DNA of 64,000 bases from Sterolibacteriaceae bacterium (GCA_043738385.1 JAYUGL010000167.1:348-64347), one strand, 5' to 3'; counted from the stretch's first letter, positions 46,385-62,633 are shown. Translations and numbers: made by a program. The notes: a model not told the origin generated them from the letters alone.

Positions 46385-47191
46385 CTACATGCACTTCGAT
46401 TGCCACTGCGAGCCGCCGGCAGGGCAATAGCCGGCGCAGGCTGCGGCTTCGTGATATCCGGAAGCGCATTGCGGATTCGGTTGGCTGACTCCCAGGGCCA
46501 CATATCCCCAGCAACCGCATGCCGACGTCGGCATGCCGCTGGCCAGCCCAACCTGTTGCGGCGGCAACTGCTGATTGGGTGGCGTGGACGATTGCTCAAT
46601 GAGGAGTCCGATTACGATCAGCCCGACGAAGATGCCGCCAATCCAGGCCAGCGTTTTCACCAGCTTTGACGATGGCGGAGTCGAGGGCGGCGACGGCACC
46701 CTATTGTCGCCCCCGGGGGTCGGGATGGGGCGCAACCCCAAGCTCTCCAGCGCCGCAGCCAGTTGCTGCACGTCGTAATCCCAGCGCTCGTCCGACAAAG
46801 TGAGCGCCTGACGCCGGGCCAGCGGCTTGAGGTCCTCGGGCAGGTCTGCGTCAACGGGTGACGCGGCGCCTTCCACCAGCACCGGAATCACCCGGATGCC
46901 GCGCTTGAGCGCGGCCGCGATTTCCAGCCGAATCCAGTCATTGGGGAGGTGCAGCCGACTCTGATCTCCGCTATCGCCGGCCCAGCGGCGGCCGATGACG
47001 GCCAGCATGACCGAGCACGACGAGAGCGCACCCTCGATGGCTTCGACGAAGTCAACACCGGGCTGGATGGTCTCGACGTCGCGGAATATCTGCGCCTTGC
47101 CGAAACGCCGCTCCAGGCTGTCGGCCAATCGCCCGGCAGCACTCTGGCTGTCCTGGCGCCGGTAGCTGATGAAAATGCCTGACGCTGCCAT
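46385..47191 (-). CDS. TIR domain, single TM, Cys-rich tail (TIR-C)
   Basis: IFISYRRQD, GRLADSL, DWIRLEIAAAL, VIPVLV. TM LAWIGGIFVGLIVIGLLI. The last ~44 aa contain 6 Cys. Confidence 0.8.
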   Translation of the reverse strand: MAASGIFISYRRQDSQSAAGRLADSLERRFGKAQIFRDVETIQPGVDFVEAIEGALSSCSVMLAVIGRRWAGDSGDQSRLHLPNDWIRLEIAAALKRGIRVIPVLVEGAASPVDADLPEDLKPLARRQALTLSDERWDYDVQQLAAALESLGLRPIPTPGGDNRVPSPPSTPPSSKLVKTLAWIGGIFVGLIVIGLLIEQSSTPPNQQLPPQQVGLASGMPTSACGCWGYVALGVSQPNPQCASGYHEAAACAGYCPAGGSQWQSKCM

Positions 47192-47347
47192 TGTTATCGC
47201 CTTTCGTTGAACACTGAATCGTCATGCCTGTCTTTGATGCTGTGTAGCACTACAGCCCGTGTCCTGTTGTCGATCATTCGGCCCAGCTTCTAGCCTGAGC
47301 CCATGCTACCTGCGGCATATTTCAATGTAAACCGCGGGTCGTCGCGC

Positions 47348-48517
47348 TCACACGAATCCGGCGAAATGGGCCGGCTGCACCTGCTTCGCGGCGGCTTGGC
47401 CGACCTTCTGGATCTCGGCTATGTATTGCACCGAATCCAGCATCTGGACGTGGTTCGGATCGACCTCCGCGAGACCCAAAGCGTCGAGGCCCGCGCGGCT
47501 CAGGTCCGCGTCATAACGCAGGTAGGTGAACAGCTTGGCGCCGGTCCAGTTGCTCTGGTCGCCGGGTTGTACCAAGAGGCCGCCGATCTCGCGATCAATC
47601 GGCCCGCCCGCGCGGCATGCGCCGAGCATCCGACACGCCGTGTCCCAGCCGGCAGCGGCGGCATTCATCAGCGCCGCCGGAATATTCTTGACGTGATCGA
47701 GCAGCCATAGATCATCGGCCTTCAGTTCCGGCCTGGCCATCGCCGCGCCGCCCGTGCCGACCGATACGATCAGCAGCTTGTCCGCGCCTGTGGGCCAATT
47801 CACCTTGTACGGCGCCGTAGTGGCCATCTGGAAGGCGAGAAAAGCTGGGTTGTTGTAGGTCGTCACACCGCCGTCTACAAATACGAACTGATACTCGTTT
47901 GGCGTACCTTCGGCGAAAGTCACCACTTCGGGCGGAAAGAACGTCGGTGCTGCCGTGCTGGCCCGCACCAGTTGCCATAGTGGCAGGTTGAGGTTGCAGT
48001 CTTTGCGATCAGCCTGGTTGTACTTGCCCAGCGGATTGTTGAACACCGGCCAGGGCGAATCAGTGGTGTGGTTGCGCAGCACCATCATCAGCAGGGTGCG
48101 CAGGTTCGCGTCGCCCAGCGTGGCGGGTGGCACGTTGTCAGCATGGCCAAGCGCGCGGTTGAGTTCAGTGCGCAGCTTTCCGGCCAACGGCTCATCGTTG
48201 TAGCTATAGCGCAGACGCTTGAAGAGGCTGGCCTTGTCGAACATCTGCTCGCCGCTACCAACGTAGAACGCGCGAATCCTGTCCATCGACATGCCGGCAG
48301 AGATGCAGGCGGCGATGATGGCGCCGGTGCTGGTGCCGCAAACGAAGTCGAAGTAATCGGCAAGCACCAGATCTGGCTTGCCGCACTGTTCGCGCAGTTG
48401 CGCTTCGATCCGCGCCAGGATTTCGACACTCATCAGGCCGCGGATGCCACCGCCATCGCAGGCGAGGATCTTCTTGGGGCCGGCGGACTGCATGCGCTTC
48501 AGGACCTGCTCGTTCAT
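47348..48517 (-). CDS. Patatin-like phospholipase
   Basis: DGGGIRG oxyanion loop, GTSTG nucleophile elbow and FVDGGV Asp motif. GGGAGA RBS. Confidence 0.9.
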   Translation of the reverse strand: MNEQVLKRMQSAGPKKILACDGGGIRGLMSVEILARIEAQLREQCGKPDLVLADYFDFVCGTSTGAIIAACISAGMSMDRIRAFYVGSGEQMFDKASLFKRLRYSYNDEPLAGKLRTELNRALGHADNVPPATLGDANLRTLLMMVLRNHTTDSPWPVFNNPLGKYNQADRKDCNLNLPLWQLVRASTAAPTFFPPEVVTFAEGTPNEYQFVFVDGGVTTYNNPAFLAFQMATTAPYKVNWPTGADKLLIVSVGTGGAAMARPELKADDLWLLDHVKNIPAALMNAAAAGWDTACRMLGACRAGGPIDREIGGLLVQPGDQSNWTGAKLFTYLRYDADLSRAGLDALGLAEVDPNHVQMLDSVQYIAEIQKVGQAAAKQVQPAHFAGFV

Positions 48518-48538
48518 GTCATTCTCCCAATACGTGTC

Positions 48539-50104
48539 TCAGGCGGACGGTCCGCCCGGCGCAACCGTGAACAACGCCTCGAACACTTCGCGTGCCTTGG
48601 CGGTATTCATGCGGCCAGCTTCCAGCCAAAGGAAACGTCCGCAGGGCGCGGCGCCAATATCGGCGGCGGCGGTCTGCCGGTCGGTTTTGTCATCGTAAAG
48701 CACAACGACACGACGCAGGTTCGCGACCTTGACCAAGACGCTCAGTTCGTAGCGGCAACCGTGGTTCTGCGATTGAAAGCCGCGCAGGTCCATGAGCACG
48801 ACGTCGCAGCGATTCACCAATGCGGTCAGCGCGGACTCCCAGGTCGTGTCGCGGCAGTAGCACTCGTTCACTCGATAGCGACCGTCCGGGTCGGGCTTGA
48901 GGTCGAAATTGGCCAGACGCTGCGGCACGTCGGGTTCGCTGTTGATGAAGCGTTTGCCCAGTTGCCCGTCGAGAAAAGTGAACAGGTCATCCGGATCGAG
49001 GGTACGGCTGACAAGGTCGGTGCCAGCGATCAGCATGGTGTTGCCGGTGAAGCGCCAGCGCTCGATCACCTGATCGAACAAGGCCTCCAGCTGCGCGTCA
49101 TGCTGAAAGACCCGCAGCACCAGCAAAGTGGCCGGGTTGTCTTCCCGCGGCCGCCAGATCGTCAGCACCCACCAGCCGACGGGGATCCAGAGCCACGGGA
49201 TCAACAAGCTCAGGCCGCTGGTGCCGACACCGGCAAATGCGGGAACGGCATTGCCCATGAGGATGACAAACCAATAGATGGCGAAGAGATAACCGAGATC
49301 GGAGAAACGCTTGTTGCGGTAAGCGCCGGCCATGCGACGACCTAGCGCGAACACCGGCCATGCAAGCAGCGCCCAGGGTGCCAGGGCGCAGAACAGCATC
49401 GTGCCCTTGACGCCGAAGACGTCGACCAATGGCGCCACAACCTGCCAGCTCGTGTTCACGTTGGTGCTGAGGGCCTGGAGCGCGAGGATCGAGGCACTGG
49501 AAAGAACCAGCGCCGGCGGCAACAGATAAGGCGCCACGGCCCGAATGCGACCACTGGCACTGATGATCAGTGTAATGATGAGTGGCACGCCCATCTCGGT
49601 GGACAACCAGCCGACGACCGCTAGCAGCGATTGCTGGGCATTGGAACGCAGCATCACGAGCACGATCATGATCACGAGATATATTGCGATGCCACCCAGC
49701 ACCCGGCCCCAGGGCCAGCGCAGGGTCAAGCCCCAGGCCAGCACCATCGGCCAGCCATAGACCGCGCCGAGCAGCAGTAGCCGATTGACCGAGAACGCCT
49801 TGACCTGAACGATCAAGGCAAACCACGCTTGCGTCAGCGCCACCAACACGCAAACCCCGGTCAGCGCCACCAGAAGGCGCATGGTCACGCGGCGATTTGC
49901 CGCGAGGTCCAACCGCGCTGGCATCCGCGGCGGCAAGGCCAACACCTCGGTAACGCCCGCACGCGCGACATCAGGCGCGGCCCCGCCACGCATCAGGATC
50001 ACCATGCGCCGTCGGTACAACCCGGCCACCACCCACGCAAGGCTGGCGGCGAGGAATACACCCAACATCAGGGCGACGAATAGGTGGCCGCTTTGAATTC
50101 CCAT
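48539..50104 (-). CDS. Multi-pass membrane protein with a C-terminal soluble alpha/beta domain of unknown function
   Basis: About 10 hydrophobic helices over the first ~320 aa, then a ~190-aa domain (LLVLRVFQHD...CDVVLMDLRGF...VVVLYDD) with alternating strand/helix character. No motif recognised. Confidence 0.6.
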   Translation of the reverse strand: MGIQSGHLFVALMLGVFLAASLAWVVAGLYRRRMVILMRGGAAPDVARAGVTEVLALPPRMPARLDLAANRRVTMRLLVALTGVCVLVALTQAWFALIVQVKAFSVNRLLLLGAVYGWPMVLAWGLTLRWPWGRVLGGIAIYLVIMIVLVMLRSNAQQSLLAVVGWLSTEMGVPLIITLIISASGRIRAVAPYLLPPALVLSSASILALQALSTNVNTSWQVVAPLVDVFGVKGTMLFCALAPWALLAWPVFALGRRMAGAYRNKRFSDLGYLFAIYWFVILMGNAVPAFAGVGTSGLSLLIPWLWIPVGWWVLTIWRPREDNPATLLVLRVFQHDAQLEALFDQVIERWRFTGNTMLIAGTDLVSRTLDPDDLFTFLDGQLGKRFINSEPDVPQRLANFDLKPDPDGRYRVNECYCRDTTWESALTALVNRCDVVLMDLRGFQSQNHGCRYELSVLVKVANLRRVVVLYDDKTDRQTAAADIGAAPCGRFLWLEAGRMNTAKAREVFEALFTVAPGGPSA

Positions 50105-50146
50105 ATCAACCGTCCCCGGGTTCAGCCACGCGTCTCGATATCGACC

Positions 50147-51088
50147 TCACGACGAACCGCCATCTCGCTTGGCGACGAACTCCACCGGCGTATGCACCGA
50201 ATACCCGCCGCTGATTTCCAGTGTGAAACGTATGCTTTCGGGCGTTACCTGACCGATGTAGTGATGCGTCACCTCCTTCGGTTCCCCGCCGCTGCTGATC
50301 GACTCCAGGCTGCGTGTCACGAAGCTCAGCCACTCGCCCTCCAGCTTTGCCTGTTCTATCGTCAGACGGCCCCCTTCGAATGAGGCCGTGCCGTGCAGCG
50401 CATTGGCCAGGTATTTGAACTCGAACACTTCGTCATACTGGTCGCCCCAGTCGTACTTCACCCGCGCGCTCCAGCGCCCGCTGAGATCCACTGCGGCTTG
50501 GTGCGCCACCGGGGTGCTTGTCGATGTTGCTGGAACAAAGCGCAATGCCGCAAACACACCGACCACGACAATCGCAACGGCCGCGACAATCAGGCGCGCT
50601 CGGCCGAAGCCAGGCTTTGCGTCGTGGGCTTCCGGCGACAACTCCCTCAATCTCGCCACCAGCCGCTCGACATCCGTCCGCCAGTCGGCATCGGACAACA
50701 CCATGGCCTGGTGGCGCGCCAGGCTGGCGATGGCATCGGGCAGATCCTCGCCAGCCGGCATTGCCGCGCCGCCCAACAGCAAGGGGATGACCGGCTTGCC
50801 GGACGCGAGCCCGGCAGCCACCTCGCGGCGAACAAAATCGTCCGGCGCATCGAGTCGTCGCCCGCCGTCGGCGCCGGCCTCCAGCCAGTGGGGTCCGATC
50901 ATCACCAGCATCGCGTGGGCGGACTGCAATTGTCTGTTGATGGCCTCGACGAAGTCCTCGCCGGGCTGAATGTCGTCCACATCGCGGAACACGCTGCCGA
51001 CCCCGAAGGCCGTCTCAAGCGCATCCGCCAGGCGGCCGGCGAAACCGGCGTTGTCGTCGCGACGATAGGAAAGAAAGAATCTGGGCAT
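50147..51088 (-). CDS. TIR domain, single TM, ~120-aa extracytoplasmic beta-rich domain (TIR-D)
   Basis: Internal ATG 51088 (MPRFFLSYRRDD). GRLADAL, DFVRREVAAGL, VIPLLL. TM LIVAAVAIVVVGVFAALRFV. The upstream part of the listed ORF overlaps the previous gene. Confidence 0.8.
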   Translation of the reverse strand: MPRFFLSYRRDDNAGFAGRLADALETAFGVGSVFRDVDDIQPGEDFVEAINRQLQSAHAMLVMIGPHWLEAGADGGRRLDAPDDFVRREVAAGLASGKPVIPLLLGGAAMPAGEDLPDAIASLARHQAMVLSDADWRTDVERLVARLRELSPEAHDAKPGFGRARLIVAAVAIVVVGVFAALRFVPATSTSTPVAHQAAVDLSGRWSARVKYDWGDQYDEVFEFKYLANALHGTASFEGGRLTIEQAKLEGEWLSFVTRSLESISSGGEPKEVTHHYIGQVTPESIRFTLEISGGYSVHTPVEFVAKRDGGSS

Positions 51089-51102
51089 GGAGAGAAACAG
51101 CG

Positions 51103-52464
51103 TTACCCGTTTTGCCCAAGATCCGCGGCGCCGAGGCAAGCGATTTCGGCCAACGACGACTGCACAGCCTTGATCTGGGTCGCGCTCGTTTCGAGCATCC
51201 AGGCGGGCACGTTCAACGCCCATGCTTCCGCCTGCCACTTGGCTGCCGCAGCGGTATCACCCAGCCCCACGGCCGCTTCGCGCAGCGTGGCGACAATCCA
51301 AAAGCGTTTCTCGGCATCGATATCCTTATCGAGCAGCGGTTGCGCGTACTGAATCACCAGGCGCCGGGTGCGTTTTGCCAGCACCGCGTCGGTCATGCCT
51401 TCGTCCCGGTCACCGGCCTTTAGCGCCTTCAAAGCCCGCATGTCCAGCAGATGGGCCAGATTGATGCCGTTGTAGTAGTCCTGCTTGAGATGGAAACCGC
51501 GCTCGCAGGCGGCGATGCTCTCATCGAGGTCCTGTTCCTGGTGGTTGAGATCCCACAGGCGCTTGTGGATGGCGCCCCACAAGCCCAGCGTTTCCGGATC
51601 GTTGGTGGTCGCCGGCGAGAGCTCGCGCAGGATGTCCTTGGCCGCCAGGAGCGCCGCGTCGGGCGTCGGCTGTTGAGACTTGTAGGTGGCGAGCGCGAGC
51701 TGCTGAATGACGAAGCTATCGTTGGGTCGTTGCTTGCGCACTTCCTCAAGCAACCGCTGGGCATTGGCGAAGTCCCCGGAACCGATCCTGCCCAGGGCAT
51801 CATCGAGGACCGACTTGGCGCTCGCGGCTTCCGGTTCCGGGCCTTCAGCGCAGGTGCCGGGGGACAGCTGCGGAGGCCGCATGCGCGCGACGATCGGGGT
51901 CAGGTGGTCTGCAACTGCTGGCCCGGTGCCTCCCGCCGCCACGGCGGCGGGAGGCACCGGGCGGGGCTTTTCCAGCTCCGGTGGAATCAGGTCGGGCAGG
52001 AAGGTATACACCGGGCTATCAATCTCCCCGCTCGCCAGGATGTCGGCGATGGCCTGCTTCAGGTCATCGCGGAAGCGCTTCGCCTCTTGCGCGCCGATGT
52101 CCTCGCCCAGATGCTTGTAGCGGCGAATGGCGATGTGGCCGACATCGAAGGGGTTCTTGAACTGTTCCTCGGCAACGATGATCGTGGCGCGATGTCGCAA
52201 ACCATAGCGGATGCCCAGCTCAAAGGCAGCGTTGACGTTGTAGGTGGATAGATCCGCGATGACCAGATCGGCCTGATACAACTGCCGGTACATCGGCGTA
52301 TCGATGGTGCCGGAGTGCGGAATCTCGTCGGCACGCAGGCATGCCAGACCCGCCGCTTCCACCGCCTCTTTGATGATGGCATAGGAAGCGTCAAGGTCGA
52401 GTACGCGCCCGTCGGTGAAATCGGTCTTCTTGCCAAAGCCCTGGACAACAAAACAAGTAGCCAT
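51103..52464 (-). CDS. TIR-like / nucleoside-deoxyribosyltransferase-like N-terminal domain + TPR-like helical domain (DUF4071-like)
   Basis: ATG 52464 with a GGAGG RBS 5 nt upstream. CFVVQGFGKKTDFTDGRVLDLDASY...DLVIADLS...ELGIRYG N-terminal fold, then a ~250-aa helical repeat region. Confidence 0.65.
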   Translation of the reverse strand: MATCFVVQGFGKKTDFTDGRVLDLDASYAIIKEAVEAAGLACLRADEIPHSGTIDTPMYRQLYQADLVIADLSTYNVNAAFELGIRYGLRHRATIIVAEEQFKNPFDVGHIAIRRYKHLGEDIGAQEAKRFRDDLKQAIADILASGEIDSPVYTFLPDLIPPELEKPRPVPPAAVAAGGTGPAVADHLTPIVARMRPPQLSPGTCAEGPEPEAASAKSVLDDALGRIGSGDFANAQRLLEEVRKQRPNDSFVIQQLALATYKSQQPTPDAALLAAKDILRELSPATTNDPETLGLWGAIHKRLWDLNHQEQDLDESIAACERGFHLKQDYYNGINLAHLLDMRALKALKAGDRDEGMTDAVLAKRTRRLVIQYAQPLLDKDIDAEKRFWIVATLREAAVGLGDTAAAAKWQAEAWALNVPAWMLETSATQIKAVQSSLAEIACLGAADLGQNG

Positions 52465-52490
52465 CAACGGTCCTCCAAATTCGACAACAC

Positions 52491-53060
52491 TCAGGCAACT
52501 GCCTGCTTCAGGCCGGTCTCGTAGATCCACTGCCCGCTGCGCGGATCGCGGATGTAGCTCAACTGCTGGCGCCGGTTGGCGCCCTGTCCGGGCGCTTTCA
52601 CCGAGATATGCACCCATCCCGAGTTGGGCCCCTGACGCGGATCGAAGCATTCACAGATGATCTGATCATAGTCGGCAAGGTTGTCGCGCGCCCACTTGGC
52701 CAGTTCCAGTGTGCTCTTGCCGGGGATCTCGACGTCGCAGGCGCAGCCCCGCGTGTGCTGGCTGGTGCTGATCCAGCCAGCCGGCTTTTGTTTCAACGCG
52801 CGCTCGGTCGCCTGGCTGCGGAAAACGCTGTTGGGCGCAAAACTGCCGAACTTGTCGCGCAACACCTGCAAAACATTTCGCGCCAGATACACCGCCGCTT
52901 GCAGTTCGGCGTCGCCGGGAAATCCATTGTCAATACCGAGCCGACTGGCGACTTCGGACTTGGTGAGTTCAAAGACGTGAAAATTCGGCGCGACGAGGTC
53001 TTGCAGGTCCAGCGCCCGGAGCGTGATCTTGTCGAGCGGCGTGGTGGATCGGTCGGTCAT
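52491..53060 (-). CDS. Peptidase M15 (D-Ala-D-Ala carboxypeptidase/endolysin-like) zinc hydrolase
   Basis: Internal ATG 53060 (MTDRSTTPL). Hx6D (HTRGCACD) and distal WVHISV His motifs of the M15 family. The listed ORF's Arg-rich N-terminal extension overlaps the upstream giant gene. Confidence 0.7.
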   Translation of the reverse strand: MTDRSTTPLDKITLRALDLQDLVAPNFHVFELTKSEVASRLGIDNGFPGDAELQAAVYLARNVLQVLRDKFGSFAPNSVFRSQATERALKQKPAGWISTSQHTRGCACDVEIPGKSTLELAKWARDNLADYDQIICECFDPRQGPNSGWVHISVKAPGQGANRRQQLSYIRDPRSGQWIYETGLKQAVA

Positions 53061-53085
53061 GACGGTCTCCCTGGGTCTGTCCGGA

Positions 53086-56000
53086 TCACAGTGCGGCGCG
53101 GACCGACTTGATGGCCTCGGCCGCTGGCAAAGATGCGATGCCGGCGAGTTCGGCCACGAAGTCCAGGTGTTCCAGCACCGACGCGTATTCGCGCGGGCTG
53201 GCGCCACGTTGTGCCGCGGCCCGGTAGCGCGCAACGATCCTGCCCACCGACTGCGTCGCCGCGTTGCCTGTCTGCAAGAGCAAGCGCGCCAGTTCGCAAT
53301 CGGCCTCGCCGACGGCATCCCAGAAGTTGGGGTTCGCCTCCTTACGCGCTGTGGCGATGGCAATCATGCGCTGGCATTGGTCGTCGACAATGCTCCGCCA
53401 ATGGTCACTGCGCGTGCGATCGAGGACGGCGACGAATACCGTGGCAATGGCCCAGTTGGAGAACGGGTAGGGATTCTCGTTGTTGCCCCGCTTGAAGGCC
53501 TGGTGGTAGTAGCTGGCCATATTGACCAGCGCCTCGAAACGCGGTGTCGCGTCGTCGCACACCCAGGCCAGGCGCTTGCAGGCGCCGCCGAGGAGATTGA
53601 GCCGCTCGACCGTCGGCGCGCGCTGGCAGATCACATCCAGTTCCCTGACGGCGTGCTCAATGTCCGCGACGAGACCGCGGCGATCCGCCGCCTTGCCGCG
53701 CTTGCTGGCGCGCAGAGCCTGCCAGCGCTGACCGCAGAGCCGCACCTGGAAGTTGGCGCACTGCTCCACCGCGCGCAGCGGACAATCACCGAGATCAGCA
53801 TGCAACGCCTTGTTCAGCCATTCCACACCCTTGGCATACTCGCCGGTTTCGCCCCAAGCGAAGCCGGCGGCGGCGGCGACGTCGGCACGCGCGGCCCACT
53901 CCCCGCGTTGCGCTTCCGGAGCGCCTGCCAGCAGTGCGTCGATCGTTGCCCGCATGCGCGCCACAGCCTCCACGTCCTCGCCTTTTTCCTTCATCTGCAT
54001 GCGAATCGATTCGCGATGGTTGTCGAGTTCGGCGACCAGCTCGGCCGGTGCCAGGAAGCTGGGCTGCGACGGCCGCGCGGAACCTTCGCCGCGGAGGCGG
54101 TAGCCATGGTCGCCGTAGCATTGATATGCGCCCCAGGTATTCACCTCGGGAAAGCTGGCCCAGACCGCGGCGCGCGCCGCTTTCACCGCTTCGCCAAAAG
54201 TCATGGGGCAGTCGGGGTCAAGCATATGCCGGTAGAAACTCTCGGCAAACGCGCCCGCCGCCCCGTCGTCAACCGCCCAGCCCGCCGCCACCACCGCCTT
54301 GACCCCCATATTGATGAACTGTACGCCCAGATTCGCCGCCAGCGCACTGTATTCGCCGTGTCCTTCGGCCTGCGTCTTGCCCAGGTGACAGCAGTTGATG
54401 AACACGAGCTCCGGCACCCAGCGCATCTGTTCGATATCGCCCGGCGTCAGGAAGGTGTTCTTGCCGATGACCATGCCCGACACGCGCCGCTCCGGTTTGG
54501 AACTGGCCGTGATGTCCTGAACGGACTGCGCTCCGTCATCGTGAGCAGCTCCGGTGTCGTCGTTCAGGACGAATTCGTGCTCGCCGTGGCCGGCCAGGTG
54601 CAGGATGCGCCAGGCATCCTTGTGCAGTCCGTCCATCAGATCTTCGGCGTTCTCATCGATGCAGTCCCTGACCCGGAAGCCGCGCCGGCTGAGCAGGGCG
54701 GACACTTTCTGCGCCTCGTCCCGTGCGCCGGGCAGTTCCGGAAACTCGCGCCAACCGCCGAGGTCGGGATTGCCTACGACGAACGCCGTGGCTTCGGTCG
54801 CGTGATGGGGGTTGAGCCGGAACTGGGGCGTCTTCAACTGGCGGATCAGGCCCGCGCTCACCGCCGGCGGACGTCCGCTCTGGCTCCAGCGATCCTCGAT
54901 CAATTCCCACGGATAGCGCGCGGAGACTTCGTCTACCAACAGGACCATGTCGGTCTGTTGGGGCGCAAGTTCCTTGAGCTGATTGGGCAGCAGCATCTCG
55001 AACAGCGTCTTGGCCACTTCCGAATTGCTGGCCGGCGAGCGTGAGGCCTGGCGAATGAAATCCTCGGCGAACCGCAATTGGCCCGTGGCATGGGTAATCT
55101 CGGCGCGGGCGCGGTCGGTCGCCGAGATGAAGCGCAAGCCGCCATCGCCTTTCTCTTCGATGATCTCCAGCCGGCCCCACCAACCCGGCGCATCGTCGTA
55201 GCGCAGGCGACGGCGACAGCCCTGACCTTCCTCGACCACCCCGGCGCTCCAGTTGACCGCAGTCGCCAGTTGACCGTCCGCCAGGAGTGCTTTGAGGGCC
55301 TTGGCGGCGGCAAGCGCGGCGTCCTCGAAAACGTCCACGAACTCGATCCTGTCAACCAGCACCTTGTCCGCCAGTTCAGCCTTCTCAAGTCGCTCGTTGG
55401 CGAGCACGGCACCGCGCAGGATGACTTCGACACAATCCCGCACGCTCGTGCCGCCCGGGCCGGAGCCGACCAACAGGCAGGAAACCGCCGCCGAACGCAC
55501 ACCGCCGCTAGGGCCGAAACGCGCATCGGGCCACCGGGCCACCTGTAGCGCGTAGTCGAGCAGCGCGGCGCACACCGTGGTCTGGAGCACCGTGGTGGAC
55601 AGGCTGCCGACTTGGCCGAGACCGATGACGATGGCACCGCCGGGCTTGCCGCTCGGCTGTTCGTTGAAAAAGACGGCATGCGTTCCGGGCTGGCCGGGGT
55701 AGAGCCCGAGCCCCAGACTCTTCGTCAAAACGCGGCCGAGCCGCCCGTCCAGCGCAGCTTCGGCATTGACGATGACGTCGCCCAGGTAGTGGCCGACCAG
55801 CACCGGGTATCTGGCGTAGGAGAGATCGCCATGCACGACGCTGACCTGGATCCTCGGTGTCGTCATCTGATCGGCGGCATCCTCGACCGGCGCGCCGGGG
55901 CCAAAGCCCATGCTGCGCATGTCGCGCTGGTCGGGAATGCTGTCGGTCGGCGGCAGCGTGGGCATAACGAATTTTTCGGCGCCGGTCGTTGCGGCGCGCG

Positions 56001-58590
56001 CGCCACCGGGCGGCGTGGCGGGCAGCAGCGATGTCTTGCCGGTCATCAGCAAATCAAGGTAGCCCGGCAGGACGCGCTTCTGGGTGCACAAGGCGTCGTG
56101 CGCGGTATCCTCCGCATACCAGACCGGCACGTCGGGCAGAAAGCCCGATTTCCAGCTCACCGTGCCATCGCCGCATGGGGTGGCGAGAAACTCCAGGCGC
56201 TTGCGTCCCGCCAGCAGTGGATCCTCGTAGTCGGCTACCTGGTAGTCGATCACGGTCGCATCCTGGCAGCCGGCGACGTAGATCATGAACTTGGGGTCGG
56301 CGGGTGCCGCTTTGAGCAGCGCCCAGGTATCGCGCGCCTGTTGCAGCACCGCCTCGTCCGTCACCGGCCAACGGGCACTCAATGCCTTCCTGAGATCCTG
56401 CCACAGCGCGCGCTGCGCGAAATCCCGACTGTCGTCATCGAAGGGCAGAAGTTCCACCAGCCCGGGAAACGCGCGTACCAGATCGATGATTTCATCGGTG
56501 TCGTGCGTCATGTCGAGCAGGCTGAGGTTCGCCTCGGTCGCGTTGTAACCTGTCAGCCAGCGCACCGCTTCGTAGGAGCCGCGGTTGGGTGTACCGAGCA
56601 TCAGGAAGCGGCTGTTCGGCAGCGCCTGGATGCGCCGCCACAGCGCCGCGCCGCGGCTGCCGTCGACGATCATGGCACGCGTCACCAGGCCGCCCATCGA
56701 GTGAGCGACGATGTGTACCGGCTGCTGAGTGCGCTCGATCTCCGGCAACCAGGTCTCCAATTTGTCGGCGAGTTTCGCCGCCGCATCGCGCACCGACAGC
56801 CGCCAGTCATAGGGGAATATCTCGACGCGATGGCTGCGCGCGAGGAATTCCAGTAGCGGGCCGTAGAAATCGTCGAGCAGATCGACCGGCTCGACGCCGG
56901 CTACGTCCATATGAATCTTCGCCAGCCCGCCCCGCAACAAGCTCCAGTAGTTCAACCAGACACCCTCGCCCTGAACGTTCAGAGCACTACCCATGGTCCC
57001 TGGCAGCACTACCGCCAGCGGCCGTGGTTCGGCGGCGGTGCGACTGCGACGCACGGCAGCGCGCCAGCGCGGCTCTGCCTGCGGCGCTTCCTGAATCGGC
57101 TGGAAACCGCCGTCGTCATCGTCGGCCCGGGTGAGGCCCGCCACCAGCCAGCGCACGCTCTTGTCGTTGGCGAAATAGCTGAAGTGACTAACGTTGGCGC
57201 CCTTGTCTAACTGGAAGCGCGCACCCTTCTCCGGACGACGCAAGCCACCGGCCATGGAGCCGGTGTTCACCACCAGGTCGTGATCGGCGCCATAGAACCA
57301 GTCGGTGGCCAGCAGCTTGACCTGGCTCCACAAGCCCTCGCCCTCGATGTCGCCGGCGATGACGCTCAAGTCGGCGCTTGTCACCAGCGCCGGATGCAGC
57401 AGCAGGCGCGTCAACGCGGAACCCGGCATCATGGCTTCAAGCCCTGGCAGCGTGCGCGGATCGGTGCGTTCCTTTACCACCGCCAGCATGAAGTCGGCAA
57501 CATCGCCGACGAGACCGTCGCCACTCAGGAAATTCAGCACCGACAGCCAACGGTCGAGCCGCCCAGAAGCCAGCGTGGTGCCGCGCGCCGGACAGGCCAC
57601 GCGTACGAAACGACCAACCTTCAACTGGCGGTCGTCAAGTTCGTTCAATAGTTGTTGCAGGTTCTTGCGGTCGGCTTGGTAGCCCAAATCGCGCGCCTTG
57701 GCATCATTCGCCGCCAGCGGTCCGAGGTCCAGTTGCCGGGCGATGGTCCGGTCGGCGGCGAAGAGCGTCTGTAGCAGTTCCGGACGTAGCAGGTCGTTCG
57801 CGCGATCGCGCTGGCCGAGGCAAAGCAGCTCGCCGACCAGGCCGCCGCGCGAATGACTGACGAGATGAATCTCGGCGCCCTTCGGCAGCCGCTGCACCAG
57901 ATCCAGCGCGTTGCGGATCGGGCTTTCCGTCATGCTGCGATGCTCCCACGCAAAGACCCGATCGCCATATTTCTCGGCCAGCGTGCGGCGTGCGGCAGCG
58001 CCGACGGCACCGTTCCACAGCTTGCCGAAGCTGCCCTCGCAACTCGACGCGGTGCCATGCAGGAAGACCAGGACCGGCTTGTCCGTGGCGATGCGCGCGT
58101 TTTTTTCGGTCGGCGAAAGCGCAAAAGTATCGCCGAGTGCGCAACGGTAGAGTCCCGGTGCCCTGCCTTTGAGCATTTTTTCTTCAAACGCCCGGCCGAT
58201 GGCGCCGGCCGCCTTTTCTTTCAGATCCACGCCGAAGAACTCGAGCGCCTTGATGCCCAATCCCATCCACCCGCGCTGGCCGCGGGCGCCTGCCCGGGCG
58301 CCGCGCGCCGACGGCTGGAGCTCGATTTCCCAGGCATCGCCGCCATCGCGGCGCACCTCCTTGCGGCCGCTTTCGCGGATCAGATCGTCGGCACGCGTCC
58401 ACAGCACGAAGCCGTTGTCGAGCTCGACCTTCACCACCTCGTCGCTGTGCGCCTCGATCTCCTCGGCGGTCGCGCCCCGCGCAGCGCCAGGCACCACGCG
58501 GCGGTGGCTGGTGATGACGACCGCCTTGCTGGTGGCCGGCGCGGTAGCCGATGACTGTTGGGTGCCACGGATGCGATAGCTGATGGTCAT
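53086..58590 (-). CDS. 1,834-aa multidomain protein: two lipase-type alpha/beta hydrolases + central alpha/beta insert + CHAT (caspase-like) protease + C-terminal helical repeats
   Basis: ATG with AGGAG RBS. SHSRG (Ser247) with DHDLVV/SHF. AHSMGG (Ser631) with GDGTV and AHD (LCAT/PGAP1-like). CHAT dyad HLAGHG (His1335) and FINCCHLG (Cys1400/1401). Residues ~1510-1834 are helical. Confidence 0.85.
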   Translation of the reverse strand: MTISYRIRGTQQSSATAPATSKAVVITSHRRVVPGAARGATAEEIEAHSDEVVKVELDNGFVLWTRADDLIRESGRKEVRRDGGDAWEIELQPSARGARAGARGQRGWMGLGIKALEFFGVDLKEKAAGAIGRAFEEKMLKGRAPGLYRCALGDTFALSPTEKNARIATDKPVLVFLHGTASSCEGSFGKLWNGAVGAAARRTLAEKYGDRVFAWEHRSMTESPIRNALDLVQRLPKGAEIHLVSHSRGGLVGELLCLGQRDRANDLLRPELLQTLFAADRTIARQLDLGPLAANDAKARDLGYQADRKNLQQLLNELDDRQLKVGRFVRVACPARGTTLASGRLDRWLSVLNFLSGDGLVGDVADFMLAVVKERTDPRTLPGLEAMMPGSALTRLLLHPALVTSADLSVIAGDIEGEGLWSQVKLLATDWFYGADHDLVVNTGSMAGGLRRPEKGARFQLDKGANVSHFSYFANDKSVRWLVAGLTRADDDDGGFQPIQEAPQAEPRWRAAVRRSRTAAEPRPLAVVLPGTMGSALNVQGEGVWLNYWSLLRGGLAKIHMDVAGVEPVDLLDDFYGPLLEFLARSHRVEIFPYDWRLSVRDAAAKLADKLETWLPEIERTQQPVHIVAHSMGGLVTRAMIVDGSRGAALWRRIQALPNSRFLMLGTPNRGSYEAVRWLTGYNATEANLSLLDMTHDTDEIIDLVRAFPGLVELLPFDDDSRDFAQRALWQDLRKALSARWPVTDEAVLQQARDTWALLKAAPADPKFMIYVAGCQDATVIDYQVADYEDPLLAGRKRLEFLATPCGDGTVSWKSGFLPDVPVWYAEDTAHDALCTQKRVLPGYLDLLMTGKTSLLPATPPGGARAATTGAEKFVMPTLPPTDSIPDQRDMRSMGFGPGAPVEDAADQMTTPRIQVSVVHGDLSYARYPVLVGHYLGDVIVNAEAALDGRLGRVLTKSLGLGLYPGQPGTHAVFFNEQPSGKPGGAIVIGLGQVGSLSTTVLQTTVCAALLDYALQVARWPDARFGPSGGVRSAAVSCLLVGSGPGGTSVRDCVEVILRGAVLANERLEKAELADKVLVDRIEFVDVFEDAALAAAKALKALLADGQLATAVNWSAGVVEEGQGCRRRLRYDDAPGWWGRLEIIEEKGDGGLRFISATDRARAEITHATGQLRFAEDFIRQASRSPASNSEVAKTLFEMLLPNQLKELAPQQTDMVLLVDEVSARYPWELIEDRWSQSGRPPAVSAGLIRQLKTPQFRLNPHHATEATAFVVGNPDLGGWREFPELPGARDEAQKVSALLSRRGFRVRDCIDENAEDLMDGLHKDAWRILHLAGHGEHEFVLNDDTGAAHDDGAQSVQDITASSKPERRVSGMVIGKNTFLTPGDIEQMRWVPELVFINCCHLGKTQAEGHGEYSALAANLGVQFINMGVKAVVAAGWAVDDGAAGAFAESFYRHMLDPDCPMTFGEAVKAARAAVWASFPEVNTWGAYQCYGDHGYRLRGEGSARPSQPSFLAPAELVAELDNHRESIRMQMKEKGEDVEAVARMRATIDALLAGAPEAQRGEWAARADVAAAAGFAWGETGEYAKGVEWLNKALHADLGDCPLRAVEQCANFQVRLCGQRWQALRASKRGKAADRRGLVADIEHAVRELDVICQRAPTVERLNLLGGACKRLAWVCDDATPRFEALVNMASYYHQAFKRGNNENPYPFSNWAIATVFVAVLDRTRSDHWRSIVDDQCQRMIAIATARKEANPNFWDAVGEADCELARLLLQTGNAATQSVGRIVARYRAAAQRGASPREYASVLEHLDFVAELAGIASLPAAEAIKSVRAAL

Positions 58591-58637
58591 GACAGGCGCT
58601 CCTCGTTCAAATTCGGTGGGTCCGCCGGACGGCGTGG

Positions 58638-59429
58638 TCAGGTGAACACGTCGAATCGGCGGGCGGCCGCGCTGCCGAATATCTGCGGGTGCTGCGGCAG
58701 TTTGCTGGAAGGCAGGTAGGCACTGATCAGTTTGAACCAGTCGTCATAATTGGACGGCGCGTCCTCGCGCAGCGTCTTCAGCGCGTAGTAGGTGAAGGCG
58801 CCGTTAGGCCGGCCATGGAAGCGCGTATCCCAGCTGTATTCGGAATCCTCGGCGCCAGCCAAAAGCAGATCGCCGCCGCTGCGCTTGAATCCGTGCACCA
58901 GGGTCTTTGGCCGCTTCGCGGTTGCAGGCAGCTTGCCCGCCGGCATCCAGTCCTGCAAGGGCATGTAGCGGGCGCGCGGCATGCCGGGGGCGGGGTCGGT
59001 TGCATCGCCGCGGGTTACCGAACCGGAGTGGCAGCTGTCGGAGAGCAGCAGGACGCGCACGCCATTCGCGCGCCGGTCGAAAAGTTGATGGATCTCGTCA
59101 TCGAGCAGTGGCCCCGCGCTGCTGATATCCCAGGGGCAGAGACCCTCATCACGGCCATCGGGCTCATCGCCGGAACTGTCCGGCACCCAGGTGCCATGCC
59201 CGGAGTAGGTGATGACCACGGTATCGCCTGACGACACGCCGGAGATCGCCGCGCCGATTAACGCCGCCATGTTAGCCTTGGTGGCCTGGCCGTCGAGCAA
59301 CTTGGTAATGGTGAAGCCGCGCTTGGCGAGTTCCGTCGCCCAGTCATTGGCATCGTTGACGCAGCCGGACAAATCGTTCTGGGTGCCGGGATAGTCGTTG
59401 ATGCCTATGCAAAGTGCCTTCTTCGCCAT
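58638..59429 (-). CDS. Caspase-like peptidase (C14 family, metacaspase/orthocaspase type)
   Basis: ALCIGINDY, His motif YSGHG (His78, nt 59196-59198) and Cys motif LSDSCHSG (Cys133, nt 59031-59033). AAGGAGGA RBS. Confidence 0.9.
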   Translation of the reverse strand: MAKKALCIGINDYPGTQNDLSGCVNDANDWATELAKRGFTITKLLDGQATKANMAALIGAAISGVSSGDTVVITYSGHGTWVPDSSGDEPDGRDEGLCPWDISSAGPLLDDEIHQLFDRRANGVRVLLLSDSCHSGSVTRGDATDPAPGMPRARYMPLQDWMPAGKLPATAKRPKTLVHGFKRSGGDLLLAGAEDSEYSWDTRFHGRPNGAFTYYALKTLREDAPSNYDDWFKLISAYLPSSKLPQHPQIFGSAAARRFDVFT

Positions 59430-59480
59430 GTTGTGTCCTCCTTGGGGCAGGCTTGTGCCACGGACCGACGCACTGTTGGT

Positions 59481-59509
59481 AATCTAGCGATGCAAACAAC
59501 TTTGGTCAA
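59481..59509 (-). promoter_or_regulatory. Candidate internal sigma70 promoter upstream of the caspase-like gene
   Basis: Minus strand TTGACC (59509-04), 17 nt, TAGATT (59486-81), inside an AT-rich 138-nt gap. A 6-bp inverted repeat GTCACG-cc-CGTGAC lies just upstream. Confidence 0.45.
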
Positions 59510-59567
59510 TGATACTGATACGTAAATATTGGTTTGTCACGCCCGTGACTTATCGGACCCACCGGCA

Positions 59568-60389
59568 TCAGAGGCTTCTGGTGTCGATCCAGCAGACCCG
59601 GCCGCTGCGGCGTTTGACTTCTTCGACCATATGGCCGGTGCCACCGGCGCCCTCGGTACCCGCGCCGTTCCAAAGGCAGACGAGACTTACCTTGTCCGGG
59701 CCGCAGACGAGGGCGGTATAGAGCAGCCAGAGATTGCAACGCTCGTAGGGGTAGTCCTCGCTGCTGCCGCGCGGCGGCTGGCCCAGCACCTCCGGTGCGG
59801 CGCGCGGGGGTGCCGCCAGCGCGGCTCTCGACGCCAGGTAACGGCGGTGCCAATCTTCGCCGCAGCCAACCACGGAGGCCGCGATGAACTCCGGTTCGGC
59901 AAAGGGTTGCAGCCAGAACACCTTCACGCCACGTTGCCGACAGGCTTCGGTGAACAGCAGGTCGCCGCCGCATGCGCCCTGCGTCAGCGCGAGATCTTGC
60001 GACCCGGCAGCGAGCCGTTCGAGCGCTTCGGCAATTCTTTGCGCCGCCTGCGCTACCTTGTTGGCGGGAAAACGTGGCGTCGGCCGATCGGGGGCATCGA
60101 TCATATGGCCACTGAACACGAAGACCTGCCTGGGCTGCCAGGTTTCTGCGGCGCGATTCGGAACAGCGGTCCCTTGCCGGCACAGGGCCTGCTCGCTCAG
60201 GCCCTTCGCATTGCCAGCGTTGATAACCAAGGCACGTTCGAGCAGTTCGAGCGCGAACGCGTAGTGCCCCGCCGCACGTAACGCCGCGGCCGCCTCGATC
60301 CAAGTATCGGCGCGAAGCTCCGCTGCCGGCGCCTCGTCGGCGAGCAGCAGCAGATCACCGATGCGGTTCGCCGAGCGGGCGAGACCCAC
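59568..60389 (-). CDS. Hypothetical protein with SLOG/LOG-like Rossmannoid domain (tentative) and short N-terminal helical region
   Basis: This frame is the only protein-like one of three overlapping ORFs. VFVFSGHMID strand, TQGACGGDLLFTEA and GAGGTGHMVEE resemble the GGxxG / GGxGTxxE loops of LOG/DprA/SLOG folds. GTG start. Confidence 0.5.
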   Translation of the reverse strand: MGLARSANRIGDLLLLADEAPAAELRADTWIEAAAALRAAGHYAFALELLERALVINAGNAKGLSEQALCRQGTAVPNRAAETWQPRQVFVFSGHMIDAPDRPTPRFPANKVAQAAQRIAEALERLAAGSQDLALTQGACGGDLLFTEACRQRGVKVFWLQPFAEPEFIAASVVGCGEDWHRRYLASRAALAAPPRAAPEVLGQPPRGSSEDYPYERCNLWLLYTALVCGPDKVSLVCLWNGAGTEGAGGTGHMVEEVKRRSGRVCWIDTRSL

Positions 60390-60437
60390 CCGCGCGTGCC
60401 AGGAATCGTTCGTTGCGATCGTAGCCCCCTTCGGTGT

Positions 60438-61832
60438 TCAACTCCAGGCGCGATTGCCAAGCCCGGCGACGTAGTCGTTGATGAACTTCGCCCAGGCGTT
60501 CTTCTTCGCGAAGTCGAGCGTGCGGTAGAGGCCGCAGACCTTCTTCTTCGGGAAGTAGATCGAGGCGCCGTGCGAATGCGCCATCTTCGCGCCTTTCCAG
60601 CCCGATCGCAGGATCATCTGCGCCGCCGCCGCCTTCACCGCCGCACAGGCGGCCGAAACATCGGCAACGGTGACGAGCTTGGCCAGGCCGTCGCAAAGGT
60701 CAACCAGGTCGACGTAATCGTCGTAGGGTGACGAGTACTCCTGCACCCCGCCGCGTACCGACTGGAGCGCGGTGAAGACCTTCGCGTCGGTCATCGCCTT
60801 GCTGAGCGCGGCGCCGAGGCTATTCACGCCGGCGGCAACGGCATCGATCTTGGCAAGATCCGTGGCGGCGAAGGTGACGCCGGAATTAGCGCCATAAGAC
60901 GCGATGTACTGGGTAACGGCGAGCTTCGAAAGTTCGGCCGGAGACATGGCCGGATTCTTGGCCAGCGCGGTCAGGATGCGGTCGTAAGGCCAGCCTTCGT
61001 TTGGCTCTTCTTCCTGCGAACCCACGGTGTAGGCAGCGACGCCCTTAACCTGGTAGCCGACTTCGAGCATGCTCATCAGGCAGGCGTCGAAACCGAGGAT
61101 GTCGATCTTGCGGCCGAGCAGTTTCTTGATGTCGAGCATGACGCGCTTCATCTCGATGTTGTCGATGTAGTCCTGCGCCTGATCGTCGAAGGCGATGGCG
61201 CGCGACTGCGCCATTTTCTGAACCGTGGTCCGGAACAGCGCGCGACCGCCGCGTCGAATCGCCGCCCGTGCCTGCGCCAGAGGAACCGCGGCCGTCTTCT
61301 TGCGCCCGGCGCCCGCGCGCGCCGACACGCCGCCCTTGGCATCGAGCGTGTAGCCCTTGCGGATCACCGGCGGCGCGTTGCCACCGAAATAGTCGCCGCC
61401 GGCGGCATAAAGGTTCGAATCGTCCCAACCGGCGCCGTGGTTCCAGAGTACCGCCAGGTAATGCTGCGCCGGGTAGGTCTTGATGCCCCAGGTCAGAAAG
61501 TCCTTCAGGACCTTGGGGTCGCCCGTATTCGTCTCGCCCAGATCACCGACGACGTCGGCCGCGACCGGGGTACCCTTGCGCAGCAGATAGCGTTTCGTGG
61601 TTTCCTTGCTGCCCGCCCGATCAAACTGGGCAACGACGTTGATCGAGGCGCTGGAGCCGACCTTCTTCATCTCCAGCAGATCGGTCACTCCGGCGCCGTC
61701 GAGATTGTTGTCGCCGGCCAGATAGACCATGAGGGTCCAGCTGGCATTCGCTTTGGCTTTGGCCGGAGCCGCTTTTTTCGTCGTCGCTCTTCCTGCCGGC
61801 GTCTTTGTTGTCGTTGCGCGTGCCATAGTCAT
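60438..61832 (-). CDS. Clostripain-like cysteine peptidase (C11 family)
   Basis: WTLMVYLAGDNNL, His motif LWNHGAGW, Cys motif GFDACLMSMLE. N-terminal Lys/Ala/Thr-rich low-complexity segment. Confidence 0.85.
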   Translation of the reverse strand: MTMARATTTKTPAGRATTKKAAPAKAKANASWTLMVYLAGDNNLDGAGVTDLLEMKKVGSSASINVVAQFDRAGSKETTKRYLLRKGTPVAADVVGDLGETNTGDPKVLKDFLTWGIKTYPAQHYLAVLWNHGAGWDDSNLYAAGGDYFGGNAPPVIRKGYTLDAKGGVSARAGAGRKKTAAVPLAQARAAIRRGGRALFRTTVQKMAQSRAIAFDDQAQDYIDNIEMKRVMLDIKKLLGRKIDILGFDACLMSMLEVGYQVKGVAAYTVGSQEEEPNEGWPYDRILTALAKNPAMSPAELSKLAVTQYIASYGANSGVTFAATDLAKIDAVAAGVNSLGAALSKAMTDAKVFTALQSVRGGVQEYSSPYDDYVDLVDLCDGLAKLVTVADVSAACAAVKAAAAQMILRSGWKGAKMAHSHGASIYFPKKKVCGLYRTLDFAKKNAWAKFINDYVAGLGNRAWS

Positions 61833-61946
61833 TCTCCCTTACGGTTGGATGTGTGGATCATGCGTACTGCCGCCGGTTGACAATACTCTCACAACATATC
61901 GGCTTCAATGGATGATCGATGCCGACAATCGGTCGCCGGCACGTAA

Positions 61947-62326
61947 CGCCTCGCGAATACCCGCGGCACGGACGGACGGATCCTCCGCGCCGACGATGAT
62001 ACGTTTCTCCGGCAGAATGAAGATGACCACCAATTCGAATACGGTATCTTCCGCCACGGCTTGGTCCGCGCCTGCCGTGACGCGTGCGCATGGCGGTGCC
62101 CACCGGCATGGCGGCGAACTTCTGGGACGACCAGTTCCGTCTGCTCGTGAACGGCGTGCCGCGCGCGCCCGACTCGAACCTGAATCTGACGGTGGAGGGC
62201 GGCGCCGCATTGGACGGTGACGTCACCTTCGAAGTACCGGATACGGCGCAGTCGCTCACGCTTCGGATCCAGCATGGCGCGGACGCCGCGGCCGACCTGC
62301 CGCTGAAGATGGAACCGAAAAAATGA
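61947..62326 (+). pseudogene. Possible frameshifted gene remnant (beta-sandwich-like C-terminal fragment)
   Basis: Two adjoining protein-like stretches in different frames: ...ILRADDDTFLRQNEDDHQFEYGIFRHGLV, then ...NFWDDQFRLLVNGVPRAPDSNLNLTVEGGAALDGDVTFEVPDTAQSLTLRI. Both have G/C-rich third positions but no intact long ORF. Confidence 0.3.
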
Positions 62327-62445
62327 AACCCGCGTCTTCATCGCAATGCCCTTCGGCCCCAAGAAGGACGCCAACGGCCGACGATAACTTCAACCGCATC
62401 CAAGACGAGCGGCTCAAGGAGCGCTTGGTCGCCATCTGCGCGTAA
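62323..62445 (+). pseudogene. Decayed N-terminal fragment of a TIR-like/NDT-like gene (paralog of 51103..52464)
   Basis: RVFIAMPFGPKKDANG (frame 0) and DDNFNRIQDERLKERLVAI (frame 1) together mimic CFVVQGFGKKTDFTDG...LDLDASYAIIKEAV. Two frame changes are needed, and the reading frame stops after ~40 codons. Confidence 0.45.
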
Positions 62446-62511
62446 GTCTGCTGGCGCTCGGCGCTGCGGAATGAAGATTCATTGTCTTTAAGGCAGACGC
62501 AAATACTCGTC

Positions 62512-62538
62512 CGTAAAATCTTTCGCTATCCCGAAAGA
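62512..62538 (-). terminator. Weak terminator candidate downstream of the C1/hydrolase gene
   Basis: 7-bp stem TCTTTCG/CGAAAGA (62519-25 / 62532-38) followed on the minus strand by TTTTA. About 95 nt after the stop at 62634. Confidence 0.3.
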
Positions 62539-62633
62539 GGATCAGGTTCGAGGCGCAATACCGATGAGGTGGCTAATGTGAGCCTTCTATATGAGCGCGG
62601 TTAGCAGCAAAAATTACAACGCGTTGCGATGAA

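Follow-up and report, generated by a model that had tools for sequence, protein, structure and literature searches.

Are nine genes packed head to tail on one strand a single machine, a set of linked systems or a chance row of neighbours? The question is raised by a 64,000-nucleotide (nt) stretch of DNA from a Sterolibacteriaceae bacterium (GCA_043738385.1, JAYUGL010000167.1:348-64347; this whole stretch is called the window below), in which a minus-strand array between positions 47348 and 61832 encodes proteases, lipases, TIR-type proteins and a membrane protein. The nine genes are not one conserved unit; they are a mosaic of recurrent blocks that have been recombined in many proteobacterial lineages, nearly always with close spacing and on a single strand. 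With somewhat better than even confidence, we read the array as a composite immune or cell-suicide island in which four such blocks serve one functional network: block A, a C11 peptidase and a YpsA-like SLOG protein; block B, a C14 peptidase, a giant protein and an M15 peptidase, often with a membrane protein; block C, a TIR-like/TPR-S protein and a TIR protein; block D, the membrane protein and a patatin (with or without TIR). This reading is built on gene content, spacing, ribosome-binding sites and the recurrent same-strand linkage of the nine families, all of which were observed.

From its 5' end, the array consists of a C11 peptidase (gene 1, 60438-61832; Pfam PF03415), a YpsA-like SLOG protein (gene 2, 59568-60389), a caspase-like C14 peptidase of 263 amino acids (aa) (gene 3, 58638-59429; PF00656), a giant hydrolase/CHAT/TPR-S protein of 1,834 aa (gene 4, 53086-58590; Pfam), an M15-family zinc peptidase of 189 aa (gene 5, 52491-53060; PF08291), a TIR-like/TPR-S protein (gene 6, 51103-52464; PF20308, PF13281), a TIR protein (gene 7, 50147-51088; PF13676, TIR_2), a polytopic membrane protein of 521 aa (gene 8, 48539-50104) and a patatin-like phospholipase (gene 9, 47348-48517; PF01734). 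Listing and translation of open reading frames (ORFs) placed all nine, co-directional on the minus strand, at the coordinates claimed in a first-pass annotation of this DNA, seven of whose nine labels were borne out by Pfam (C11, C14, the giant, M15_3, TPR-S, TIR_2, patatin); its SLOG-like label is backed by an AlphaFold model searched with Foldseek, and its polytopic membrane label by hydrophobic segments. The same-strand run is longer than nine genes, with an extra TIR gene 156 nt downstream and a C1-peptidase/hydrolase gene about 800 nt upstream.

Spacing and translation signals of the array

With the start codons chosen in the first-pass annotation, its intergenic gaps were reproduced exactly (48, 138, 47, 25, 26, 14, 42 and 21 nt), seven of the eight thus measuring 14-48 nt and the remaining one 138 nt. 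Two metagenome contigs of about 95.6% DNA identity (L105, L106), annotated independently by others, have the same starts and nearly the same spacing (48, 143, 47, 25, 26, 14, 42 and 21 nt). Shine-Dalgarno (SD) sequences had been reported before most starts, and an SD-like tetramer is indeed present at -16..-4 upstream of six of the nine, C11 being taken at its second ATG, against a regional background of 8% of positions (binomial P ~2e-5); none lies in that interval before the SLOG, TIR and membrane-protein starts. A consensus scan, which is weak evidence, detected no terminator-like site in any of the eight gaps, and an Rfam search gave zero matches. Given the tight spacing, the array is predicted most likely to be transcribed as one to three units.

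The 138-nt gap (59430-59567) lies at a block boundary. It had been singled out as the only gap roomy enough for a promoter, which holds: it contains a promoter-like site (TTGACC-17-TAGATT, 59509..59481, minus strand), one of two found on the minus strand in 19 kb, the other being in the 156-nt gap after the patatin gene (again by consensus scan, weak evidence). In two relatives with a 78% identical giant (L100, L103), two extra genes stand exactly at the position of this gap. Its folding was no better than that of shuffled sequences (z +1.1), and footprinting was uninformative, the only alignable relatives being 96% identical there.

These data bear on the idea of a single obligatory nine-gene operon, a fixed machine that needs all its parts. 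Order and gap lengths are identical in L105-L107, which carry all nine genes (proteins 85-99% identical), and no internal terminators are predicted. These three loci are, however, about 95.6% identical to the window in DNA and so are not independent evidence; below about 85% identity no locus keeps all nine genes, and the 138-nt gap holds both a promoter-like site and a gene insertion point. We regard such an obligatory operon as very improbable.

Recurrence of the blocks in other genomes

Two surveys of gene neighbourhoods were made. For the first, an alignment of giants was used as query against species genomes, in which the giant has at least 458 relatives; 80 of these loci (giants 46-68% identical) were examined, with the window proteins mapped onto them by tblastn. 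Greedy longest-ORF calling was distorted by antisense shadow ORFs of high-GC DNA (families f5, f6 and f13), and the tblastn maps were relied on. For the second, an alignment of membrane proteins was used as query, and 80 metagenome loci of 224 membrane-protein relatives were examined; an earlier metagenome scan with the single membrane protein as query had given no matches.

The giant is the constant core of the neighbourhood. A C14 gene, 47 nt upstream of it in the window, lies immediately upstream on the same strand in 31 of the 71 loci with enough flank; a SLOG gene takes that place in 11 of the 71, and a same-strand TIR gene lies upstream in some others. M15 follows the giant immediately in 44 of 74 loci. 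Further partners in this survey are the membrane protein (16 loci), TPR-S (12), TIR (9) and patatin (7; n = 80). Of 151 locus-family cases, 147 have the partner on the giant's strand. The second survey, with the membrane protein as anchor, brought up the same partners (M15 at 19 loci, the giant at 18, SLOG and TPR-S at 13 each, TIR at 11 and patatin at 9), and 143 of its 148 partner high-scoring segment pairs were on the same strand.

Four Azonexaceae-type loci (L053, L057, L058 and L089; giant 51-52% identical) combine six of the eight partner families, arranged as long SLOG-C14-giant-M15-membrane-patatin-TPR-S. In its raw longest-ORF map, L058 has gaps of 3-38 nt or overlaps of 4 nt from C14 to TPR-S, and one spurious 104-nt SLOG/C14 overlap; the gaps in the raw maps of the other three loci are artefactual. 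In the closest named relative of the giant survey, a Hydrogenophilales metagenome-assembled genome (L016), the order is C14-giant-M15-TIR-(STAND/TPR)-membrane-patatin. Architectures are clade-specific on the giant tree: SLOG-giant-M15, TIR-giant-M15-SLOG, C14-giant-M15 and C14-giant-M15-membrane. Among 40 relatives of the window's own genome, eight have a giant match, five of them strong and essentially full-length, and three annotated loci among these relatives differ, two being TIR-giant-M15 (G007) and a giant with unknown genes (G022). In two genomes (G001, G002) both the giant and the flanking haem-operon gene are absent, so that no empty site is demonstrable within the genus.

C11 was never present in the 80 giant-anchored loci, and its own homologues were followed instead. 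At 82-86% identity these have a SLOG gene directly after them in three different contexts: C11-SLOG-TPR-S-patatin (L096), C11-SLOG-giant (L098) and C11-SLOG-two small genes-C14-giant-M15-membrane (L100, L103). The first two contexts are a cassette swap at one site, where TPR-S and patatin in L096 (8617-15998) are replaced by the giant in L098 (8618-18681) between shared flanks. One flank consists of an opposite-strand TIR gene, a gene of 445 aa, C11 and SLOG, the other of the genes for an Old Yellow Enzyme and a 91-aa protein. A homologue of gene 7 at 65% identity lies in a membrane-patatin-TIR row followed by three more TIR genes (L108).

The check on conservation of gene order that the first-pass annotation had proposed thus came out in two parts: sub-blocks (C11-SLOG, C14-giant-M15-membrane, membrane-patatin-TIR and patatin-TPR-S) are kept in divergent loci, and the full nine-gene order is kept only in near-identical relatives. 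Its argument for functional linkage over chance juxtaposition is supported, each of the nine families being found in independent loci beside others of the set, nearly always on one strand; neighbours shuffled or absent in all homologous loci, which it had named as telling against linkage, were not what was found.

The principal rival to a functional network is a defence island in which autonomous systems merely lie side by side, with spacing that stems from compaction and read-through. On this side are the separate occurrence of the blocks (the giant alone in one genome, and C14-giant-M15 without TIR in most loci), the self-sufficiency of TIR and TPR pairs for defence in the literature, and the different composition of strains that share one site (L096, L098). 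Against it, the same few families, not a broad range of defence genes, recur at two independent anchors, in many lineages, on one strand and in varying order; gaps of 14-48 nt leave no space for separate promoters or terminators; the TPR-S domain is common to the giant and gene 6; and a long TIR-like-TPR-SLOG fusion joins three domain types in one chain. We hold side-by-side autonomy to be possible, though on balance unlikely.

Several results weigh against a composite island working as one network. A TIR gene within 10 kb is absent from about 70 of the 80 giant loci, 12 of the 80 have no partner family at all, and one relative (G005) has the giant alone between housekeeping genes; because so many loci are without TIR or partners, the giant is not strictly dependent on the other genes. 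Likewise, 36 of the 80 membrane-protein loci, many of them short, have none of the set. The loci are phylogenetically clustered, so independent events are fewer than the raw locus counts suggest. In L103 a conserved block is more loosely packed (gaps of 191-206 nt), and in L098 the gene 18 nt downstream of the giant encodes an unrelated Old Yellow Enzyme; for both reasons short gaps are weak evidence by themselves. The array is recognised by none of the PADLOC or NCBIfam models, no curated cut-off being reached, and profile matches of the N-terminal domain of gene 6 to the nucleoside hydrolase DNPH1/Rcl are weak (E 0.5-0.8).

Proteins of the four blocks

In block A, gene 1 is a clostripain-family cysteine peptidase of 464 aa (PF03415, E 1e-54), which probably starts at its second ATG (61826). 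Two ATGs lie six bases apart (61826-61832), of which only the second is normally spaced from the AAGGGAGA ribosome-binding site, and several C11 homologues are two residues shorter. Gene 2 consists of a helical N-terminal part and a SLOG domain; it has no Pfam match, and its SLOG profile has no significant sequence match in the PDB. The best Foldseek match of its AlphaFold model (12 homologues, pLDDT 80) is YpsA (PDB 2nx2; E 1.6e-5, target-normalised TM 0.62), followed by DprA and LOG, and the alignment of homologues has invariant GxGGD (first G nearly invariant) and GGT-x-H motifs. By its modelled Rossmann-like fold and glycine-rich loops, gene 2 is assigned to the SLOG superfamily.

C11 ends in a TGA that shares its reading frame with the SLOG ORF, and the 16 codons from this stop to the GTG at 60389 include no ATG, GTG or TTG. 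Similarity to the SLOG proteins of L096 and L100 at the peptide level continues upstream of GTG 60389 through those 16 codons, and the same in-frame arrangement of C11 stop and SLOG occurs in L100. The real SLOG start may be an ATC at 60419, with AAGGGGG before it; read-through of the stop, giving a C11-SLOG fusion, is another possibility.

Many loci have a long fusion of about 660-700 aa made up of a TIR-like N-terminal domain, a helical TPR-like region and a YpsA-like SLOG domain; examples are L053:6939-8918 and L040:10900-12885, and such genes often adjoin the membrane protein or C14. The 273-aa SLOG protein of the window is equivalent to a shortened form of this fusion and matches its residues ~181-260 and 462-659. 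Insertion of C11 into an ancestral long TIR-like-TPR-SLOG gene was considered and rejected: the sole detectable remnant, of 16 aa, is on the opposite strand, and the short SLOG form directly after C11 is kept at 67-75% identity in three other contexts. This remnant, VFIAMPFGPKKDANGR (62334-62381, plus strand), derives from a TIR-like N-terminus of the kind carried by gene 6 and the long SLOG proteins; being antisense to the array, it does not represent an N-terminus that the SLOG gene has lost.

In block B, gene 3 matches PF00656 with E 7e-24. Gene 4 contains two alpha/beta-hydrolase domains (DUF7379, LCAT-like), a central domain, a CHAT protease domain and a C-terminal TPR-S domain (residues 1585-1715). 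Gene 5 has no signal peptide and no hydrophobic segment.

In block C, gene 6 has an N-terminal alpha/beta domain (TIR-like/nucleoside-hydrolase-like) and a TPR-S domain (residues 231-340; PF20308, E 1e-24), together with a match to MAP3K_TRAF_bd (PF13281). Its top Foldseek match is ASK1 (8qgy), with weak profile matches to ASK1 and DNPH1; the TPR-S profile has no significant sequence match in the PDB. In architecture gene 6 resembles ASK1, BcTpr and ThsI, which fits membership of that group and does not prove it. Gene 7 has a TIR_2 domain (E 9e-15), one transmembrane segment and a C-terminal outer domain, and starts 14 nt after gene 6 without an SD sequence. NCBIfam gave no match for gene 6 and only ThcB4 for gene 7 (33 bits against a cut-off of 220 bits), and PADLOC gave only weak TIR matches for the two genes; both libraries may predate type VIII Thoeris.

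When the array is compared with its 95.6% identical relatives, identity drops in three places: to 85-87% in the TPR-S of the giant (53312-53905), to 72% in the linker of gene 6 (51842-52111) and to 84-87% in gene 7 (50351-50941). This local divergence suggests diversifying selection or recombination in sensor parts, and its focus on the giant's TPR-S, the gene 6 linker and the TIR gene is the pattern expected of immune sensors.

In block D, gene 8, which belongs to no Pfam family, encodes about 8-9 hydrophobic segments within residues 1-316, followed by a soluble C-terminal domain that is conserved. Gene 9 matches a PADLOC phospholipase effector (E 2e-44) and the NCBIfam model CBASS_lipase (115 bits, below the 200-bit cut-off); at the level of sequence it resembles CapV-type lipases of CBASS.

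None of C11, C14, the giant, M15 and patatin has an N-terminal hydrophobic segment, and C11 has one weak internal hydrophobic segment (residues 386-404). Because they lack an N-terminal hydrophobic segment, the five enzymes are predicted to act inside the cell. This touches on a non-immune role, in which the genes would provide secreted or contact-dependent degradative enzymes for nutrition or for attack on competitors. Such a role would suit a set with many proteases and lipases, a cell-wall-type peptidase and membrane-anchored TIR proteins as neighbours; the enzymes have no signal peptide, however, no secretion-system genes are present, and TIR, SLOG, TPR-S, CHAT, caspase and CapV-like patatin form the domain set of intracellular signalling immunity. 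We give a degradative role very little credence.

Flanks of the array

Upstream of C11 is a spacer of about 800 nt (61833-62633) with overlapping doubtful ORFs, which is likely to be the 5' control region of the array. It includes a candidate tenth small gene just 5' of C11 (61889-62374, minus strand), at which a 147-aa gene was called in two close relatives (L109, L110); the candidate has no Pfam match, overlaps a plus-strand ORF and may be spurious. Beyond the spacer lies a minus-strand gene cut by the end of the window (62634-63998+), which encodes the C-terminus of a papain-like (C1) peptidase followed by an alpha/beta-hydrolase with a GHSAG elbow; Pfam gave no match, and these motifs were read from the sequence itself. 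At the equivalent place in L109 and L110 a gene of 699 aa was called. Past the position of the window's high end, the close relative L109 (1653-4238) has a fragment of an rve-type integrase and the 699-aa C1-peptidase/hydrolase gene 5' of C11; this region adjoins a CCP_MauG gene and is possibly the edge of a mobile island. The GC content is 0.62-0.67 across 44-62 kb of the window and 0.53-0.62 in most flanking 2-kb bins.

On the other side, the 156-nt gap after the patatin gene (47192-47347), with its promoter-like site at 47331..47303 on the minus strand, is likely to be the 3' end of the array. The minus-strand TIR gene that follows (46385-47191; Pfam), whose product is membrane-tethered, is probably a separate transcription unit. 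This gene is intact in the window and split by a frameshift in L105 (13907-14702) and L106 (13908-14399), where a 163-aa gene was called and the rest lies in another frame.

Known immune systems and a proposed mechanism

Genes 6 and 7 are an adjacent pair like those of type VIII Thoeris and BcTir/Tpr, in which a protein with a hydrolase or TIR-like N-terminal domain and an ASK1-like TPR-S is joined by a TIR protein. BcTir/Tpr of Bacillus cereus is anti-phage, the N-terminal glycosidase of Tpr making an isomer of cyclic ADP-ribose (cADPR), and Tpr-centred operons with TIR, YpsA, patatin, caspase and transmembrane (TM) genes have been catalogued (bioRxiv 10.1101/2023.05.26.542521). In type VIII Thoeris, TIR makes canonical cADPR, which activates ThsI, a hydrolase with TPR; islands with multiple ThsB (TIR) proteins and multiple effectors also exist (bioRxiv 10.64898/2025.12.03.692087). 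Like the published Tpr assemblies, the array also has YpsA/SLOG, patatin, caspase and TM genes. Unlike type VIII Thoeris and BcTir/Tpr, it holds the pair inside a nine-gene run with three caspase-fold proteases, the giant lipase-CHAT protein and M15, all foreign to the described types; its TIR is membrane-tethered, and curated models gave no match. Gene 6 has in its N-terminal domain a candidate counterpart of the 'CMP hydrolase' domain of ThsI.

Two other systems link proteolysis to such genes. In Lysobacter capsici, cleavage by LcCaspase activates the adjacent alpha/beta-hydrolase zymogen LcHydrolase, a death effector (bioRxiv 10.1101/2025.11.14.688446). A caspase-like gene likewise adjoins an alpha/beta-hydrolase here, conserved across lineages; in the array, however, the hydrolase lies within a 1,834-aa fusion with its own CHAT and TPR-S domains, and the two are likened by gene arrangement only. 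Type IV Thoeris (TIR and the caspase-like ThsE) also has TIR and a caspase-family protease in one cluster, but TIR and C14 of the array are not adjacent, C14 has no match to a Thoeris model and most C14-giant loci have no TIR.

A broader likeness is to the TPR-S conflict systems, whose variable operons combine TPR-S with partners of the TIR, TIR-like, SLOG, patatin and caspase kinds. We take PF20308 to be the TPR-S domain of the conflict systems, based on nucleotide signalling, that Burroughs and Aravind predicted and that are the bacterial forerunners of the ASK signalosome. Neither the C14-giant-M15-membrane core nor the C11-SLOG pair was found described in the defence literature examined. 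From these comparisons, the array is most likely a Thoeris-like/TPR-S conflict system combined with protease-gated effectors, with a predicted anti-virus or self-destruct function.

As a mechanism for the composite island, we propose that upon infection the TIR and TIR-like domains would turn NAD+ into a cyclic ADP-ribose-type signal, to be read by the TPR-S domains (in gene 6 and at the C-terminus of the giant) and the SLOG domain. The caspase-fold proteases (C14, CHAT, C11) would then cleave and release latent degradative effectors, namely the giant's alpha/beta-hydrolases, the patatin lipase, the M15 peptidase and the membrane protein, which would jointly destroy the envelope of the infected cell. 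Expression would start from one promoter upstream of C11 and from an internal promoter in the 138-nt gap serving C14 through patatin, and gene 7 would be translationally coupled to gene 6. Transcripts, signal, protease-substrate pairs and defence phenotype are predictions of this scheme.

A more tightly knit version would make the nine genes one integrated, apoptosis-like death pathway of several branches, with blocks swapped as cassettes between strains. There TPR-S, SLOG and the giant's central domain would, in parallel, sense cyclic ADP-ribose-type signals made by TIR, and a cascade of C11, C14 and CHAT would act on the lipases, a cytoplasmic M15 peptidase and the membrane protein. Such full integration seems to us distinctly doubtful.

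As a composite island of four blocks, the array joins TIR/NAD-derived nucleotide signalling, as in Thoeris, and proteolysis-gated death effectors in one transcription-sized package. Within the giant/membrane family, no member was matched by the curated defence models searched, and none was found tested in the literature examined. The family is very widespread, with the giant in at least 458 species genomes and its membrane partner at 224 metagenome loci. The block map defines natural sub-arrays (C14-giant-M15-membrane, C11-SLOG, TPR-S-TIR and membrane-patatin-TIR) and marks likely transcript boundaries. If the blocks do cross-talk, the array would stand as a bacterial counterpart, of unusual complexity, to the cell-death circuits that eukaryotes build on caspases, TIR and ASK1.

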